The notes under the pieces were generated by a model. That model was not told the DNA's origin. It did no database searches and saw only the letters and a program-made list of their open reading frames with translations. From contig DATNOR010000186.1 of assembly GCA_035601235.1 (NCBI GenBank), positions 279 to 64,278 of the forward strand: a stretch of DNA of 64,000 nt, given 5' to 3'. This document shows positions 30,822 to 48,970 of this stretch, piece by piece. Source of the stretch: Gemmatimonadales bacterium (GTDB lineage Bacteria; Gemmatimonadota; Gemmatimonadetes; Gemmatimonadales; GWC2-71-9). The translations under genes were made by a program, and so were the position numbers. Each line of letters opens with the position of its first letter. Position 1 is the first letter of the stretch.

Positions 30822-30941
30822 AACGCGGAACGCGGAACGCGGAACGCGGAGCAGAGGCGCAGGCATCCGGGGGAGAAGCCGAATCTGGCGCGCAGAATGG
30901 CGTACGTCTGTTCCGCGTTCCGCCTTCCGCGTTCCGCGTTC
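30822..30941. repeat. heptamer-armed palindromic element, copy A (~120 bp)
   Basis: Left arm (AACGCGG)x4 at 30822-30850, ~60-nt core, right arm TTCCGCG TTCCGCC TTCCGCG TTCCGCG at 30911-30938. The arms are complementary with 1 mismatch. Homologous to 45635..45753 in the opposite orientation. Confidence 0.8.
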
Positions 30942-42037: not shown

Positions 42038-43587
42038 CGCTCGCCTCCTGGTTCAGGTTGTCCCCATCCGCCCCCGCCCGGTGTCTCGATGCGGACCACG
42101 TCGCCGGCCGCGAGTCGTGTGCTCACCTTGGACGGGAGCGGGGCCCCGTTCACGAGCGTACGCCCGGGAGCGCCCGCGCCGCCGCCACCGACTCCGCACG
42201 GGGCGTGGCGCCGCCGCTCCGCGAGAACGCTCGCGTCCATCGGGGCGAGCGCTTCGAATTCCCGAATCACGCCGTCCCCGCCCGACCACCGCCCAACCCC
42301 GCCGCTGCCCCGTCGTAAGCCGTACGCCTTGAGCCGCAAGGGATACTCCATCTCGAGCACCTCGACCGGCGTGTTCCGCGTGTTCGACATCCCCACGTGC
42401 ACGCCCGACGGTCCGTGAGCGCCGGAGCTCGCCCCCTGGCCACCCCCGATCGTCTCATAGTAGGTCCAGCCGGTTTCGAGCCCCGAGTCCCGAACCCCGA
42501 GTCCCCCGAACGTCACGTTGTTCATTGTGCCCTGCCCCTGCGCCGGGACCGGGAGACTGCCGGTCGCGAGCGCCCGGAACACCGTGTCCGCGATGCGCTG
42601 CGACGTCTCGACGTTCCCCGCCGCCACGGCACTGGGGAAGCGGGCATGCACGAGGCAGCCCTCGGGCGCCGTGACCCGCACGACCCGGGTCACGCCGCCG
42701 TTCGTCGGCACGTCCTCAGGCAACAGCGTGCGCACCACGAACAGCACCGCCGAGCGCGCCACGGCGAGCGGGCAGTTGACGTTGCCGTGCGCGGCAGGGG
42801 CGGTGCCGGTGAAATCCGCGTGGAACATGCCGTCCCGGATGTCCACGCGGACGCGAATCGCCAGGTCTCGGTCGTCGACGCCGTCGCCTTCCAGCCAGTC
42901 GGTCGCGGTGAGCCCGGTCGCCTCGAAGCGTGCCAGGGCCTCGCGGGCGCGCCGCTCGGCGTACGCCTGGAGGTCGCGGGCGGCGTCGCACAGCGCGGCC
43001 CAGCCGTGGCGCGCCGCGAGCGCCCGTAGCCCGTCGGCGCCGCGCTCCACGGCGGCGCGCTGGGCCGCGAGATCGGCGCGGCGCGCCTCGGGGGTGCGGA
43101 CGTTCGCGAGCAGGAAGCGCTCGACCTCCGGCGTGAGCCGCAGCGGCGGCACCACCACCCCCTCCGCAAAGATCTCGCGCGCGCCCGCGGGCATGCTCCC
43201 CGCCTGCATCCCGCCCACGTCGGAATGGTGCGCGCGCACCACGCCATAGCCGCCCACCGCGCCCTCCACCTCCACGGCACCGACGAGCGTGATGTCCGGG
43301 AGGTGCGACCCGCCGGCGTAGGGATCGTTCAAGATGAAGACGTCGCCTGGCGCGGGGGCCAGGGCCCGCACGGCCGCGACGGACTCATGCAGCGCGCCCA
43401 GATGTACGGGAATGTGGGCCGCCTGAGCGATCATCTCGCCGGCGGCGTCGAACAGCGCCGCGGAGCAGTCACGTCGCTCCCGGATGTTGGGGGAGACGGC
43501 CGAGTGAATCAGCACGAGCCCCATCTCCTCCGCGATGGAGGCGAAGGCATGCCCCATCACCTCGAGGCCCACCGCGTCGAGGCTCAT
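42034..43587 (-). CDS. hyuB: hydantoinase B / oxoprolinase family protein
   Basis: ATG 43587 overlaps the hyuA stop (ATGA). SPNIRERRDCSAALFD, ILNDPYAGGSHLPD, YYETIGGGQGA. Confidence 0.9.
   Translation of the reverse strand: MSLDAVGLEVMGHAFASIAEEMGLVLIHSAVSPNIRERRDCSAALFDAAGEMIAQAAHIPVHLGALHESVAAVRALAPAPGDVFILNDPYAGGSHLPDITLVGAVEVEGAVGGYGVVRAHHSDVGGMQAGSMPAGAREIFAEGVVVPPLRLTPEVERFLLANVRTPEARRADLAAQRAAVERGADGLRALAARHGWAALCDAARDLQAYAERRAREALARFEATGLTATDWLEGDGVDDRDLAIRVRVDIRDGMFHADFTGTAPAAHGNVNCPLAVARSAVLFVVRTLLPEDVPTNGGVTRVVRVTAPEGCLVHARFPSAVAAGNVETSQRIADTVFRALATGSLPVPAQGQGTMNNVTFGGLGVRDSGLETGWTYYETIGGGQGASSGAHGPSGVHVGMSNTRNTPVEVLEMEYPLRLKAYGLRRGSGGVGRWSGGDGVIREFEALAPMDASVLAERRRHAPCGVGGGGAGAPGRTLVNGAPLPSKVSTRLAAGDVVRIETPGGGGWGQPEPGGER
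42477..42510. repeat. heptamer array CGAGCCC CGAGTCC CGAACCC CGAGTCC, inside hyuB
   Basis: Read directly. The coding strand is G-rich (GGACTCG/GGGTTCG units) and encodes GGLGVRDSGLETG between the conserved FGG and YYET blocks. Confidence 0.7.
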
Positions 43588-45608
43588 GTGCGCGCCAGCA
43601 GCACCGCGCCCGAGGGGTGCACGGTGCCACACCAGCCGGGCTCCACGAGGGCGGTCGCGTCGCCGCCGGCCAGGATCGCCGGACCCTGCAGCGTCACTCC
43701 CGTGGCGAGCTGGTCGAGCGCCCACACCGAGCCGGTGATCCGCTCCCCACGCACGACGAAAGGACGCCGTCCCAGCGGGCGTCGCCCACTGCGGTGTTCG
43801 CCCGCGAAGCGCGGCAGCGGTCCCTCGCGCAGCACCACGACGCGCAGGTTCACAATCTCGACCGCCAGGCCGCCCCCGTGTCCGTAGCGCGCGCGGTGTG
43901 CCGCCACGAAGGCGGCACGAATCCGCTCGGGCTCGTCTCCTTCGACCGGGACCGTCACCTCGTAGCCCTGTCCCGCGAAGCGACAGTCAGCATAACGGAG
44001 CAGCGCCGCGCCGGGGATCTGGCGAGCACCCTCCGCGACGATCGGTGCGAAGGCTTGGGCCAGCGCCCGCGGCTCGAGGCCGTCCACGGGACGGTGAAAC
44101 GATGCGAGCAGATCGGCCCGCTCGGGCGCCGACGCGAGCCCCAGCGCGGACAGCGCTCCGGGATGCGGCGGGATGACGATCGTGCCCATCCCCAGCGCTT
44201 CGGCCAGCTGGCAGCCGAACAGCGCCCCCGCGCCCCCGAACGGCAACAGCGTCATGCGGCGCGGGTCGAGGCCACGCGCGACGCTCACCCGCTTCAGGGC
44301 GCGCGCCATCACGGCACCGGCGACCGCGACGACTCCAGCGGCGACCCGTGCGGCGTCGCTCCCGACCGTGGGGCCGAGCCGGCGCAGGGCCCGCTCGGCG
44401 GCGCGAGGGTCGAGCCGCACGCCGTCGGCGAGCGGGCTGTCCGCGTCGAGCCATCCCAGCGCGACACAGGCATCGGTCACGGTGGGTCGCTCGCCGCCGC
44501 GCCCGTAGCACGCCGGCCCCGGCACCGCTCCGGCGCTCTCCGGCCCGACGCGCAGGGCGCCACCCTCGTCCAGGCGCGCGATGCTGCCGCCGCCCGCGCT
44601 CACGGTCTCGATCAGCACCGCCGGCAAGGCGAGCGGGACGCCGCCGACGCTGCCCGCACCGTTGGCGAGCGGAGCACCCCCGACCACGAGGCTCGCGTCG
44701 GCGCTCGTGCCGCCCATGTCCAGGGTGAGCAGATCCGAGAGGCCCACGGCGGCGCCGATCAGACGGGCCCCGACCACACCACCCGCGGGGCCCGAGAGCG
44801 CGAGCGATGCCGCGTGCGCGGCGGCGGCGGCGGGCGTGCGCGTGCCCCCGCTCGACGTCATCACCCGCAGCGCGCCGATCGCGCGCTCGCGCAGGCCGCC
44901 GTCCAGCCGCTCGATGTAGGTCGAGACCCTGGGACGGAGGTATGCTTCGACGGTGGTCGTGCTGGTGCGCTCGAACTCACGAAACGCGGGGAGCACCTCG
45001 TGGCTCGCCGCGACCGCCACGCGCGGCAGCGCGTCGCGCAGGGCGGCGGCGAGCCGCCGCTCGTGCGTCGGGTCGCGAAACGCGAACAGCAGCGCGATGG
45101 CGACGGCTTCCGGGGCGAGCCCCCGCACAGCGGCGACCACGCGCGCGACCTCCCCCTCCGTGAGCGGCTCGAGCACCCCGGCTGGGCCGATGCGCTCCGC
45201 GACCCCCACCACGTCTCCCCGGGCGACGAGCGGTGGCGGGTGGTCGCGCGCCAGGTCGTAGAGCGCGGCGCGGTCCTGCCGGCGCAGCCACAGCAAGTCC
45301 TCGAATCCCCGGGTGGTGACGAGCACCACGCGGGCGCCGCGCCGCTCGAGCAGCACGTTGGTCGCGATGGTTGTACCGTGGATCAGCATGTCTATGGGGA
45401 CGGGGGACGAGGGAAGAGGGACGGGTGGGGATGTCGCCGCACTCGTCCCCCGTCCCTCGTCCCTCGTCTCCAGCGTATCTAGCGCCCGAAACATCCCGAC
45501 CGCCGGGTCCTCCGGCGTAGTGGCGACCTTACGGACCTCGATCGCGCCGTCGGGCGTGAGCGCGACCAGGTCGGTGAACGTTCCCCCCACATCCACCCCG
45601 ACCCTCAC
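43584..45608 (-). CDS. hyuA: hydantoinase A / oxoprolinase family protein
   Basis: GTG 45608 gives VRVGVDVGGTFTDLV. HGTTIATNVLLERRG. Contains the hairpin insertion 45396..45471. Confidence 0.9.
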   Translation of the reverse strand: MRVGVDVGGTFTDLVALTPDGAIEVRKVATTPEDPAVGMFRALDTLETRDEGRGTSAATSPPVPLPSSPVPIDMLIHGTTIATNVLLERRGARVVLVTTRGFEDLLWLRRQDRAALYDLARDHPPPLVARGDVVGVAERIGPAGVLEPLTEGEVARVVAAVRGLAPEAVAIALLFAFRDPTHERRLAAALRDALPRVAVAASHEVLPAFREFERTSTTTVEAYLRPRVSTYIERLDGGLRERAIGALRVMTSSGGTRTPAAAAAHAASLALSGPAGGVVGARLIGAAVGLSDLLTLDMGGTSADASLVVGGAPLANGAGSVGGVPLALPAVLIETVSAGGGSIARLDEGGALRVGPESAGAVPGPACYGRGGERPTVTDACVALGWLDADSPLADGVRLDPRAAERALRRLGPTVGSDAARVAAGVVAVAGAVMARALKRVSVARGLDPRRMTLLPFGGAGALFGCQLAEALGMGTIVIPPHPGALSALGLASAPERADLLASFHRPVDGLEPRALAQAFAPIVAEGARQIPGAALLRYADCRFAGQGYEVTVPVEGDEPERIRAAFVAAHRARYGHGGGLAVEIVNLRVVVLREGPLPRFAGEHRSGRRPLGRRPFVVRGERITGSVWALDQLATGVTLQGPAILAGGDATALVEPGWCGTVHPSGAVLLART
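45396..45471. repeat. heptamer hairpin (GGGGACG-type arms) inserted in frame in hyuA
   Basis: Left arm GGGGACG GGGGACG AGGGAAG AGGGACG, ~15-nt loop, right arm CTCGTCC CCCGTCC CTCGTCC CTCGTCT. Encodes roughly ETRDEGRGTSAATSPPVPLPSSPVP. Confidence 0.8.
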
Positions 45609-45634
45609 CGCTCCACCACCCCCCTCCCCGCTCC

Positions 45635-45753
45635 AACGCCGAACGCGGAAGGCGGAACGCGGAACAGAGCGTACCCAGTTCGTTCGCCCAACCTCGTGTC
45701 CGGGATCGAACTCCGCGCGATCTGTTCCGCATTCCGCGTTCCGCGTTCCGCGT
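45635..45753. repeat. heptamer-armed palindromic element, copy B (~120 bp)
   Basis: AACGCCG AACGCGG AAGGCGG AACGCGG ... TTCCGCA TTCCGCG TTCCGCG TTCCGCG. Its reverse complement aligns with copy A over both arms and the arm-proximal core. Lies between the lnt stop (45757) and the hyuA start (45608). Confidence 0.8.
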
Positions 45754-45756
45754 TTC

Positions 45757-47292
45757 TCACGCGCTCCGTCTCCAGTGCAGCACCGCCAGCGCCCCGGCGA
45801 ACCCCAAGGTCGCGAGCACACAGAGCGTTCCCACCCAATCTCCCAGCCGCACGTACGGCGGGATCACGTCGCTCGAGCGCAGCCGGCCGGAGACCGCCGC
45901 TTCGACCTCGAGACCGGTGGCCGCGTAGGTCTGGCCCAGCGGATCAACGAACTCGGAGATGCCGTCGTTCGCGGCGCGGGCGATCCCCGTCCGCGTCTCG
46001 ATCGCCCGCATCACGAGGTGCGTGGCGTGTTGATAGGGACCGGCGGTGCGGCCGTACCAGGCGTCGTTAGTGATGTTCACGAGAAAGTCGGCGCCCGCCG
46101 CGCGATAGCGGCGCGCCAGATCTTCGAACGCCGACTCGTAGCAGATGACCACCCCGAAGCGTCCCAAGGGACTGGGGTAGAGCGGCAAGGTGGACCCCGG
46201 CGAGAACCCGCCGGACCAGTTTCCCAGACCGGGGACGCTGCGAAACAGGCGCACCGGGACGAATGGGACCCGCTCGACCACGGGCACGAGATAGTGCTTG
46301 CCGTACACGGGATACGCCCGCCACTGGCCGGTCGAATCGTAGAAAAAGGCGGCGTTGTAGTAGGCGTCCCGCGTCACCGCATGCAGACCTCCCGTGAGGA
46401 TCGGCGTGTGCCGCTCGCGCGCCAGTGCGGCGATCTGTGCGTCCCACGTCGGCGTCTCCGCCAGCCAGCCGGGCACGGCGGCCTCGGGCCACACGAGGAG
46501 GTCGAGCCGGCCGCCGGACTCGAGCTGGCGCGACAGGCTGAGCAGCTTCGCCACGACGCTGTCGGCGTGCGCAGGATCCCATTTTTCGTGGAAGCCCTCG
46601 TTCGGCTGCACCAGGCCGACCGTGCCCAGCTCGCGCAGCGGCAGTGTGCGCGTGCGCCAGGCACCGTAGGCCCAGGCCGCGACGACCGTCGCGAGCACGG
46701 CAATCACCGGTCGCCACCGAATCGAGCCTCTTCCCACCGCGTCCACGATCATCACGTTGCACCAGGCGAGCCACAACGTCACTCCACGCGCGCCGGCGAG
46801 GTCGGCCCATTGCACGAGCACGGGCGCGTCGCCGAGCGACGTGCCCAGCCCGAGCCAGGGAAACCGGATATCTCCCTGATGTCCCACCGCCCATTCGACG
46901 GCGGTCCAGGCGAGCGGAAACACGAGGGCGAGCGGCACCGCCGGGAGGCGGCGGCGCACGCGCAGCACGAACCAGAAGAGCAGGCCGTGCCACAGTCCGA
47001 AGATGGCGATCGTGGCGAGGTAGCCGAGGGCCGACAACGGCGTAAAATGCCACAGCGCGACGACCAGCCAATACAGGACGGCTCCCTGCGTCACGAAGCC
47101 GTACGCGAATCCCCAGCGCAACGCGTCGCGCGGGTGGCACTCCTGCTCCAGCCGGCGCAGCAGCACGACCGCCGGGGCGACCGCGACGAAGCTCAGCAGG
47201 GGAAGGCGAAAGGGAGGGTAGCTGGCGACGAGGAGGGCGGCGCCGATCGCGATCAGCGCCGCGGACCGCCGGCTCGCCGGGGGGAGGGTCAC
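45757..47292 (-). CDS. lnt: apolipoprotein N-acyltransferase
   Basis: Multi-TM N-terminus plus a CN-hydrolase domain (LVWPE, ICYESAF, NDAWYG). Confidence 0.9.
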   Translation of the reverse strand: MTLPPASRRSAALIAIGAALLVASYPPFRLPLLSFVAVAPAVVLLRRLEQECHPRDALRWGFAYGFVTQGAVLYWLVVALWHFTPLSALGYLATIAIFGLWHGLLFWFVLRVRRRLPAVPLALVFPLAWTAVEWAVGHQGDIRFPWLGLGTSLGDAPVLVQWADLAGARGVTLWLAWCNVMIVDAVGRGSIRWRPVIAVLATVVAAWAYGAWRTRTLPLRELGTVGLVQPNEGFHEKWDPAHADSVVAKLLSLSRQLESGGRLDLLVWPEAAVPGWLAETPTWDAQIAALARERHTPILTGGLHAVTRDAYYNAAFFYDSTGQWRAYPVYGKHYLVPVVERVPFVPVRLFRSVPGLGNWSGGFSPGSTLPLYPSPLGRFGVVICYESAFEDLARRYRAAGADFLVNITNDAWYGRTAGPYQHATHLVMRAIETRTGIARAANDGISEFVDPLGQTYAATGLEVEAAVSGRLRSSDVIPPYVRLGDWVGTLCVLATLGFAGALAVLHWRRSA

Positions 47293-48296: not shown

Positions 48297-48970
48297 TTCC
48301 CGGCCCAGCGATACATGACGCCCGAGCGGAGCGACGCGGTCGAGAGCCCGCTCGAGAGCACGCCGCGCGCCTCGAGCGTGAAGCGCCAGCGTTTGGCGCC
48401 GAATTCAGCGCCGACCGTGCCGTTCAACCCGGCCGTGATCTCGTTCAGGGCGTCCTGCACGAAGGTGCCGTTGATGGCAGCGCCGCTGCCGTGACGGAAG
48501 TGGGCGCCGAGCCCGATCCCCATGTAGGCCGTGACCGCGTGCCCCTGCGGGAGCACGTACTGCAAGTCCACATCGCCGGTCACGTCGCTCCAGGTAATGC
48601 CGCCCAGCTTGATGGTATCGTCGCCCGAGGGATCGACCACGACGCTCTTGAGGCGCTGCTCGAAGCGCGCGCGGGCGGCCGACCCGAAGTCGGCCTTGAA
48701 GTAGGACACGCCGAGCAGCACGCGCACGTGCGGCGCGATGAACCCGTAGTCGAGCCGCACGCCGCCGGTGAACGCACCCCGGATGTTGTTGCCGCCGAGC
48801 GGCCCGACGTCGAGCTGGAGCGCACTGGGCTTCAGGTTGTCGTAGGAGAACTGGGAGAGCAGACCTTGGGCGGACAGGCGGACAGGCGGACTGACGGACA
48901 GCAGCAGCGCGAGCAGACCGACCGCCCGTCCGCCCCTCCGCGCGACCGCCTTAATAGAGGCGCTCGACAT
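48293..48970 (-). CDS. putative outer-membrane beta-barrel protein
   Basis: ATG 48970 gives the signal peptide ...GLLALLLSVSPPVRLSAQ. Alternating beta-strand pattern. Aromatic-rich C-terminal stretch ...GVMYRWAGK. Confidence 0.5.
   Translation of the reverse strand: MSSASIKAVARRGGRAVGLLALLLSVSPPVRLSAQGLLSQFSYDNLKPSALQLDVGPLGGNNIRGAFTGGVRLDYGFIAPHVRVLLGVSYFKADFGSAARARFEQRLKSVVVDPSGDDTIKLGGITWSDVTGDVDLQYVLPQGHAVTAYMGIGLGAHFRHGSGAAINGTFVQDALNEITAGLNGTVGAEFGAKRWRFTLEARGVLSSGLSTASLRSGVMYRWAGK

Follow-up and report, generated by a model that had tools for sequence, protein, structure and literature searches.

We analysed a stretch of 64,000 nucleotides from a Gemmatimonadales bacterium (hereafter the window), in which the locus under study is the junction between lnt and hyuA. 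The lnt gene (apolipoprotein N-acyltransferase, 45757-47292, minus strand) was assigned from its Pfam domains LNT_N and CN_hydrolase, and its stop codon TGA (45757..45759, minus strand; TCA on the plus strand) lies at the ancestral position, the C-terminus HWRRSA* being common to element-free relatives. The hyuA gene (hydantoinase A by Pfam, 43584-45608, minus strand) starts with a GTG codon (hydantoinase/oxoprolinase A, 45606..45608, minus strand), placed by the Pfam match to Hydant_A_N from residue 2 and by the N-terminus MRVGVDVGGTFTD, which is conserved in relatives. The outer neighbours, also assigned by Pfam, are a GFO/IDH/MocA oxidoreductase and, at the opposite end, hydantoinase B. Between lnt and hyuA lies an imperfect palindrome of about 120 nt (45635-45754), hereafter copy B, and from the foot of this hairpin to the hyuA start runs a G-rich spacer with the ribosome-binding region (45609..45634, minus strand), the counterpart of the 16-nt TGGGGGCGGGGCAGTG at the element-free junction of a relative (contig L122).

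Copy B is made of two 34-nt arms of AACGCGG-type heptamers flanking a 52-nt loop, and on the sense (minus) strand it reads, from the lnt stop codon onwards, TGA GA (AACGCGG)3 AATGCGG AACAGA - 52-nt loop - TCTGTT CCGCGTT CCGCCTT CCGCGTT CGGCGTT. The lnt-proximal arm, delimited by sequence and repeat analysis, is the 5' arm on the sense strand (45721..45754, minus strand) and ends in AATGCGG AACAGA; the hyuA-proximal arm is the 3' arm (45635..45668, minus strand, TCTGTT to CGGCGTT) and carries the unit CCGCCTT, a signature of the family described below that faces the opposite arm with a C-C mismatch. The central loop (45669..45720, minus strand), characterized by loop alignments and metagenome depth, is itself weakly palindromic (z = 3.8 against its own reverse complement). 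Inverted-repeat detection returned arms at 45635-45685 and 45704-45754 with 82% complementarity over 51 nt, the heptamer arms themselves (45635-45668 with 45721-45754) form 31 Watson-Crick pairs, 1 wobble pair and 2 mismatches per 34, and TRF reported a period of 7 with 4.4 copies on each arm, which makes both arms tandem arrays of 7-nt units. The predicted RNA fold reaches -87.8 kcal/mol on the sense strand (z = -7.3) and -74.4 kcal/mol on the antisense strand. Searching the window for the heptamer dimer AACGCGGAACGCGG with at most 1 mismatch yielded 12 matches, compared with 0.10 expected, and all 12 fall inside copy B and a second palindrome, copy A. The heptamer-armed palindrome that the initial annotation proposed at lnt-hyuA is therefore real by its arm complementarity, its fold and its dimer count. 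Its stop-adjacent placement also stands, copy B beginning 2 nt past the lnt stop codon; the arm ends at 45754 and not at 45753, and the gap to the hyuA GTG (45608) is 26 nt and not about 27 nt.

Copy A (30822..30940, plus strand) was recognized as a member of the same family by repeat alignment, sequence and site comparison, and lies between the DAHP synthase stop codon and lolA. As described initially, copy B aligns with copy A over both arms, at 93% identity over 42 nt and 97% over 34 nt including TCTGTTCCGCGTTCCGCCTTCCGCGTT, and the centres have diverged, with no significant likeness between the loops (z = 2.0 forward, 0.7 reverse). A special kinship between the two copies was considered and rejected: their left arms are identical at 27 of 28 positions, a similarity reached or exceeded by 16% of family pairs among the matches listed, and their loops are unrelated. 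Judged by their sequences, copies A and B are ordinary members of a family, and it is on this family, not on the A-B pair, that their non-chance status rests. Two arm substitutions, each specific to copy A or copy B, form G-U pairs on the sense strand, and the sense RNA folds better than the antisense RNA in copies A and B, by 8.6 and 3.5 kcal/mol; this advantage leaves a little room for local RNA-level selection.

The family was delineated in soil metagenomes using the exact 26-mer CTGTTCCGCGTTCCGCCTTCCGCGTT, which corresponds to the inner right arm with its CCGCCTT unit and was found in more than 118 contigs. Clustering these contigs by their flanks resulted in 54 groups among the matches listed, some of which are orthologous sites of different species, so that we estimate about 40-54 distinct sites (at least, among the matches listed). 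The consensus reads AACGCGG AAGT(C/G)GG AACGCGG AACGCGG AACAG - loop - CTGTT CCGCGTT CCGCCTT CCGCGTT, followed by CCGCGTT or CCGACTT. The unit opposite CCGCCTT is AACGCGG, giving the C-C mismatch, in 33 of 44 copies and the perfect complement in 2 of 44 (among the matches listed), and the conservation of this mismatch speaks for descent from a common source rather than for separate growth at each site. Loop length is about 10 to about 60 nt, apart from two outliers close to 120 nt (among the matches listed), and several loop types recur at unrelated sites, for example CAGCAGTGGGAGGTCGTGCCGCGAGCGACCTTCCACTGCTG. In two soil DNA runs, arm depth summed over contigs is 100-200 times the flank depth, the copy-B loop has the depth of its flanks and is thus single-copy, and many soil contigs join the two arms via other short loops. 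The initial suggestion of a dispersed element, which was based on two copies, is borne out by the number of sites sharing the exact 26 nt and by the arm depth, both of which reveal many further genomic copies. Across the aligned copies, the family architecture shown is one of tandem AACGCGG/CCGCGTT arms of about 28-35 nt with conserved non-complementary variant units and a variable loop.

To compare the junction in relatives, we searched for Lnt homologues and then examined eight contigs encoding graded relatives. The gene order SpoIID / hypothetical / GFO-IDH-MocA oxidoreductase / lnt / hyuA / hyuB is kept in all relatives examined. The hairpin is present in L115, L116, L117 and L118 (Lnt identity 96%, 90%, 89% and 84%, respectively), and the junction is filled too in the same-species contigs L138, L165 and L202. 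The junction is empty in L120 and L121 (Lnt identity 78% and 77%), where the stop and start codons overlap as CTGATG, and in L122 (75%), where TGA is followed by the 16 nt TGGGGGCGGGGCAGTG and then GTG. In the filled junctions, a heptamer-armed hairpin of 120-175 nt is placed precisely after the stop codon and before the G-rich ribosome-binding stretch. Comparison with the empty junctions identifies the stop codon of lnt and the C-terminus HW[RK]RSA* as ancestral and puts the insertion point between TGA(T) and GGGGG, with an ambiguity of at most 1 nt. No target-site duplication is visible between filled and empty sites at lnt-hyuA, and the family copies have no matching flanks. Site A (DAHP synthase-lolA) is empty in the L120 and L121 genomes, with a GTGATG stop/start overlap. 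These alignments show that copy B was inserted in the lineage of the window, downstream of the lnt stop codon and ahead of the hyuA ribosome-binding site, once that lineage had parted from the element-free relatives. Stop-adjacent placement was largely forced here, because the ancestral spacer measured 0-16 nt, was mostly ribosome-binding site and left 1-2 nt free after the stop. As sites A and B are both empty in L120 and L121, with overlapping genes, both window copies entered formerly translationally coupled junctions. The comparison of orthologous junctions, which the initial annotation had put forward as a check, speaks against a role dedicated to lnt-hyuA: in L120, L121 and L122 the genes overlap or lie 16 nt apart and the hairpin is absent.

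The element has evolved rapidly at this junction, where it is remodelled between strains. In L138, L165 and L202, whose flanks are 97.7-100% identical to the window, it is almost identical (L138 has AGCAGA in place of AACAGA and a single changed loop base), and judging from these contigs it is not hypervariable within the population. Among the orthologues, the arm unit is AACGCGG in the window and in L117, and AATGCGG / CCGCATT in both arms in L115, L116 and L118; contigs of the AATGCGG-type strains (2.5-7.6 kb) span site B and end before site A, about 15 kb away, and DAHP synthase is too conserved for contigs of the two sites to be paired by it. The arms of L117 carry the same CCGCCTT unit, there perfectly paired with AAGGCGG of the left arm. 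Arm pairing is kept in every orthologue, with 29-32 Watson-Crick pairs out of 34 despite the change of unit. The L118 loop is homologous to the window loop in the same orientation (z = 4.1), from which it follows that the whole element was not replaced and that the arms switched unit in place. The loop of L117 is inverted relative to that of the window (z = 6.9 in reverse complement, versus 2.4 forward), as expected from recombination between inverted arms. In L115 and L116 the left arm is duplicated and the loop is different. A hybrid copy at another site (L183) represents an intermediate, combining a left arm made wholly of AATGCGG units with a CCGCGTT right arm. On the lnt side, L115 shares 97.7% identity with the window, against 79.7% on its hyuA side; for L118 the two values are 81% and 95%. 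A further palindrome, lying in frame within hyuA and variable among strains, accounts for part of the low hyuA-side identities. As aligned, the junction flanks show a mosaic among related strains, and the series of orthologues shows that, at this junction, the unit changed in both arms together, the loop inverted and one arm underwent duplication.

We then called the genes around the family copies by third-position GC content. A stop codon lies at -2 to +4 nt from one element end in about 30 of 45 copies, i.e. about two thirds, among the matches listed, so that the placement remarked upon for copies A and B is a property of the family. TGA, TAA and TAG are all found among the abutting stops, the first A or AA of the arm often completing TGA or TAA, and the abutting gene lies left of the element in 15 copies and right of it in 13, with 3 copies flanked by such genes at either end. 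The element being palindromic, transcription from either side encounters the AACGCGG units first. Over the family copies, sense and antisense fold energies differ by a mean of 0.17 kcal/mol (Wilcoxon p = 0.80, n = 28), and the sense-strand RNA selection hinted at by copies A and B was rejected family-wide on this ground; with no strand difference in the family, the better sense fold of these two copies does not extend to the family, and the palindrome seems to be a feature of the DNA. Abutment on stop codons could stem from purifying filtering (starts need an upstream ribosome-binding site, stops need nothing), from loss of useless spacer by deletion, or from a real preference or function at stop codons.

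Scans for known signals at copy B returned no intrinsic terminator, the hairpin being followed by GGAGCGGGG without a U-tract, and no sigma-70 promoter at the element, and Rfam 15 gave only generic miRNA-hairpin matches far under their gathering scores (35 versus 168 bits). A tRNA-derived loop was considered, as GAGTTCGATCCC is T-arm-like, and rejected: ARAGORN finds none, and GAGTTCGATCCC is half of the inner palindrome of the loop. Only two metatranscriptomes hold 5% of the element words; arm-containing contigs from relatives occur in them, with no usable 3'-end signal. An incidental effect of the intercistronic hairpin on the lnt-hyuA mRNA is plausible. In E. coli, REP hairpins located no more than about 15 nt from a stop codon reportedly stall terminating ribosomes, according to Liang and Deutscher, which by analogy suggests a possible side effect on Lnt output.

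For a mobilizing gene, we inspected the ORFs within 3 kb of the 54 site groups and found no recurrent transposase-like ORF. A recurrent neighbour gene as mobilizer was also rejected, the recurring proteins being housekeeping-like and coming from orthologous sites split by the DNA clustering; by eye, we take them to resemble Obg, Rex, DprA, HflX and a sigma factor. Among the features of REPs and REPINs, the family has many dispersed, extragenic, hairpin-forming copies; palindromic arm units and a guide tetranucleotide (e.g. GTAG) were not found, the arms being direct heptamers and the flanks variable. Among the features of MITEs, terminal inverted repeats are present, the arms acting as 34-nt inverted termini, and target-site duplication was seen neither between filled and empty sites nor in the family flanks; internal homology exists in the form of loop subfamilies at several sites, yet the loops of A and B are unrelated, and no parent IS was found within 3 kb of the site groups. 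Membership in either class is not established, because the arms are not palindromic REPs and there is neither a conserved guide tetranucleotide nor a target duplication. The elements resemble REPINs in behaviour but do not qualify as REPINs or MITEs on these features. Integron attC sites have the core sites R''/R' RYYYAAC ... GTTRRRY and form cassette arrays beside an integrase. An attC site was rejected, the inner words GCGGAAC / GTTCCGC being off this consensus and the neighbours being syntenic housekeeping genes in all relatives.

Heptamer arrays extend well beyond this family. Three tandem AACGCGG units occur in more than 114 stretches of species-representative genomes, the hosts including Gemmatimonadota, Verrucomicrobiota, Planctomycetota, Acidobacteriota, Chloroflexota and Streptomyces. 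Among the matches listed, these arrays comprise 47 convergent pairs, about 11 divergent pairs and 50 solo arrays across phyla, and pairs that begin with the AACGCGG arm are about 4 times as frequent as those in the opposite order, so that the arrangement is chiral. Several AACGCGG arrays are in frame within genes, related units with a GGAA(C/T) core occur in several phyla, and the window holds further heptamer arrays of several other units. Period-7 arrays number 180 in L001-L114, versus 1-16 for each other period, and 84 in L123-L240, versus 2-15. A literature search found no paper on such repeats in Gemmatimonadetes.

Taken together, we consider it probable, with some reserve, that copy B is a non-coding, REPIN- or MITE-like member of a dispersed palindromic family of soil Gemmatimonadales, remodelled at the DNA level and acting incidentally as an intercistronic hairpin. 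The copies would spread as whole hairpins, through a putative hairpin-recognizing activity of the REPIN/RAYT or IS200/IS605 type or, alternatively, through ectopic recombination using the arms as portable homology. Remodelling would proceed by slippage within the arrays, by exchange between arms and by recombination between inverted arms, and copies would persist where they are harmless, directly abutting stop codons and ahead of ribosome-binding sites. In the lnt-hyuA transcript, loss of the ancestral translational coupling is a probable consequence of the very stable hairpin (about -88 kcal/mol), and partial termination of transcription or protection of the lnt 3' end may be others; such effects would be a by-product and not the reason for the element.

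Against this family-insertion reading, the unrelated loops, the many units forming period-7 arrays and the solo arrays mean that part of the pattern could arise locally. In such a scenario, without transposition, arrays would grow in place by slippage and be inverted by fold-back or template switching, and the shared arms would reflect mutational bias and ectopic gene conversion. The excess of period-7 repeats over all other periods, with many units (180 versus 1-16 and 84 versus 2-15), is consistent with this, as are the mixture of solo, convergent and divergent AACGCGG arrays (50, 47 and about 11 among the matches listed), the occurrence of in-place unit changes and hybrid arms, and the many unrelated loops. 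We nevertheless regard a local origin without transposition as unlikely: the empty sites measure 0-16 nt, so that the 52-nt loop and both arms are new DNA without a local source, the same 26-nt right arm occurs at about 40-54 sites with its mismatch kept in 33 of 44 copies, where arm-to-arm templating would erase it, and loop subfamilies of 40-45 nt are common to unrelated sites. A second alternative is a dedicated cis-regulatory RNA at lnt-hyuA. Such an RNA (an attenuator, a terminator lacking a U-tract, an RNase processing site or an mRNA stabilizer) would be selected to set the ratio of the two products; the initial annotation had listed mRNA processing or stability, an attenuator and a protein-binding site as possible roles. 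Speaking for it are the sense fold of -87.8 kcal/mol compared with -74.4 kcal/mol for the antisense, the copy-specific arm substitutions of A and B that give sense-strand G-U pairs, and an intercistronic position at which the element is fixed and nearly invariant in four same-species contigs. The hairpin is missing, however, from syntenic relatives; its arm unit, loop and number of arms vary at the same junction among close relatives; the same element stands at dozens of unrelated junctions, in both orientations to the genes; the sense strand has no family-wide advantage (p = 0.80); and the scans found no U-tract, promoter or Rfam family, all of which makes a dedicated role at lnt-hyuA very unlikely. 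A further alternative is a protein-binding array, in which GGAAC/CGGAA words spaced by 7 bp would serve a DNA- or RNA-binding protein, for example a nucleoid protein or a recombinase, and the palindrome would be a paired site. The strictly periodic word, the GGAA(C/T)-core units of several phyla, the conservation of non-complementary units and the chirality of the arrays (about 4:1 in favour of a leading AACGCGG arm, among the matches listed) fit such a role, and the conserved mismatches resemble the strand-marking mismatches of recombinase hairpin substrates. The element has, however, survived an exchange of AACGCGG for AATGCGG at one and the same site, its architecture is also built from many unrelated units in these genomes, and no candidate protein was identified, so that we hold this alternative to be highly improbable.

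A bolder reading, to which we give only a slim chance, is that the hairpins are products of a dedicated putative activity that writes or copies 7-nt words, either a hairpin-specific enzyme of the HUH or recombinase type or a process that reiteratively extends the 3' ends on both sides of a break. If true, it would explain together why AACGCGG comes first at 4:1, why targets are not duplicated, why strand-marking mismatches are conserved, why both arms are rewritten in concert and why AACGCGG is present in five or more phyla of soil bacteria. In its stronger form, the flush placement at TGA, TAA and TAG would reflect a mechanism or function linked to translation termination, and not tolerance.

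Under the preferred reading of copy B as a family member, the annotation of the lnt-hyuA hairpin should read repeat element instead of riboregulator. For the study of repeats, the junction offers a clean series from empty to filled to remodelled site, which shows heptamer-armed hairpins being gained as units, keeping their stem while both arms change unit, inverting their loops and marking recombination mosaics. Models of origin and function have to accommodate the family-wide flush placement at stops, in which both orientations are used equally and neither RNA strand is favoured, and if a mobilizing or writing activity exists, the Gemmatimonadales would be a good place to find one.

Among known systems, heptanucleotides are the most abundant class of long simple-sequence repeats with units of 5-11 nt in bacteria (Mrazek et al. 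2007, as summarised in PMC4679880), and the heptameric STRRs and long simple repeats of cyanobacteria are mostly intergenic, with an origin by polymerase slippage proposed in the portion of that article drawn on here (PMC4679880). The present family shares with them a period of 7, the dominant class of simple repeats; in the same portion they are mostly single direct arrays, often long, and are not described as two-arm hairpins with a signature. The TAACTGA repeats of marine Beggiatoaceae lie at gene junctions, are patchily distributed across phyla and sometimes overlap stops (MacGregor 2015, PMC4679880). Unlike the Gemmatimonadales hairpins, they are direct repeats with one inverted case in 170 sets, their unit has stop codons in all three frames, and they sit mostly just upstream of start codons. 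With REPs and REPINs (Bertels and Rainey 2011, PMC3116915), the family has in common hairpin-forming extragenic repeats of about 100 nt in many copies per genome, frequent placement after stops, the lack of target duplication and imperfect stems with conserved mispairs. Each REPIN arm, however, is a palindromic REP with a guide tetranucleotide, whereas the arms here are tandem heptamers with no conserved guide, and REPINs have RAYT transposases (PMC3116915), whereas no RAYT is linked to the Gemmatimonadales family in the 3-kb neighbourhoods.

Heptamer-array hairpins are a known, poorly understood kind of element, noted since 2007-2015 as heptanucleotide repeats and Xanthomonas arrays, for which the portions of the literature consulted held no experimental test of function, and copy B joins them. 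In the sections of Rehm et al. 2015 used here (PMC4692102), GGGAATC arrays with a 7-nt unit are dispersed in the genomes of Xanthomonas campestris and X. axonopodis, with 70-75 convergent, stem-loop-capable pairs per genome; they lie mostly between co-oriented ORFs, preferentially less than 50 bp from a stop and sometimes overlapping it, and are mostly transcribed, and GGGGA(C/T)T heptamer arrays occur in Nostoc. Tandem 7-nt units, convergent stem-loop pairs and an intergenic position near the upstream stop are thus common to the arrays described there and to the present family. The host phylum differs, and the AACGCGG unit, unlike GGGAATC, is not G-quadruplex-forming, having a GG run only and no run of 3 or more G. 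As far as those sections describe the Xanthomonas arrays, the Gemmatimonadales family also differs by its conserved non-complementary arm units and recurring loop subfamilies, and the gain by insertion, concerted unit switch and loop inversion seen here are not mentioned there (PMC4692102). The closest described relatives of copy B and its family are, on the features given in these sections, the paired heptamer arrays of Xanthomonas.

We compared the lnt-hyuA junction, where copy B of the AACGCGG-heptamer-armed palindrome lies (window 45635-45754, minus strand), with relatives carrying a hairpin at the same junction. Across window 45290-46060, the lnt flank of L115 is 97.7% identical to the window and its hyuA flank 79.7%; for L118 the corresponding values are 81% and 95%. 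Flanks this discordant suggest that recombination breakpoints fall at the hairpins or close to them. The G-rich spacer before hyuA is 10 nt longer in the window than in L122, a relative with an empty junction, and TRF reported a 20-nt period (2.2 copies) at window 45592-45635, spanning the G-rich ribosome-binding region and the hyuA start.

Within hyuA (45396-45471) lies another hairpin, this one armed with heptamers of the GGGGACG/CGTCCCC type and translated in frame. It is missing from L121 and L122, both with an empty lnt-hyuA junction, and a heptamer version is present in L116 and L118. In L115 and L117 the matching codon position is taken by a GC-rich palindrome of another kind, not built of heptamers, which makes the hyuA site a swap point as well.

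In the soil-metagenome contig L183 and its cluster (L137, L151, L186 and L220), the left arm is wholly of the AATGCGG type and lies opposite a CCGCGTT-type right arm, giving a T-G pair in every unit. This hybrid copy looks like an intermediate in unit switching. The window also holds facing arrays of 8-nt units, GGCGGACA x4 and CCGACCGC x4, close to a gene boundary (48869-48950), which may be an octamer form of the heptamer-armed architecture. Elsewhere, AACGCGG x3 appears by eye to lie in frame within a helicase-like, seemingly conserved gene in two genome stretches, L022 (labelled as a Klebsiella MAG) and L087, apparently at the same position in both. Further arrays apparently lie within HflX-like and asparaginase-like ORFs of metagenome loci.

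At the DAHP synthase-lolA junction, which holds copy A in the window (30822-30940, plus strand), the site is empty in the genomes of L120 and L121, whose lnt-hyuA junction is empty too, DAHP synthase and lolA overlapping there as GTGATG (L241 and L242, ~2541). The only open lolA start 3' of the element in the window is the ATG at 30897, within the loop of copy A, and the right arm is therefore read within the LolA N-terminus (MAYVCSAFRLPRSAF...).

Comparison of a groundwater metatranscriptome run (X22) with window 45300-46300 yielded RNA-derived contigs in which both arms are linked through other short loops, and the summed depth over the arms far exceeds that of the flanks. Related hairpins are thus present in RNA libraries, with DNA carry-over possible.

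The word (G)GTTCGATCC occurs in loops both at the lnt-hyuA junction (window 45700-45712 and L118) and at an unrelated site, on the soil-metagenome contig L124. ARAGORN found no tRNA in the window copy containing this word. The word resembles a tRNA T-arm, and in L124 it is enclosed by a 5-bp stem, TCAGG/CCTGG.
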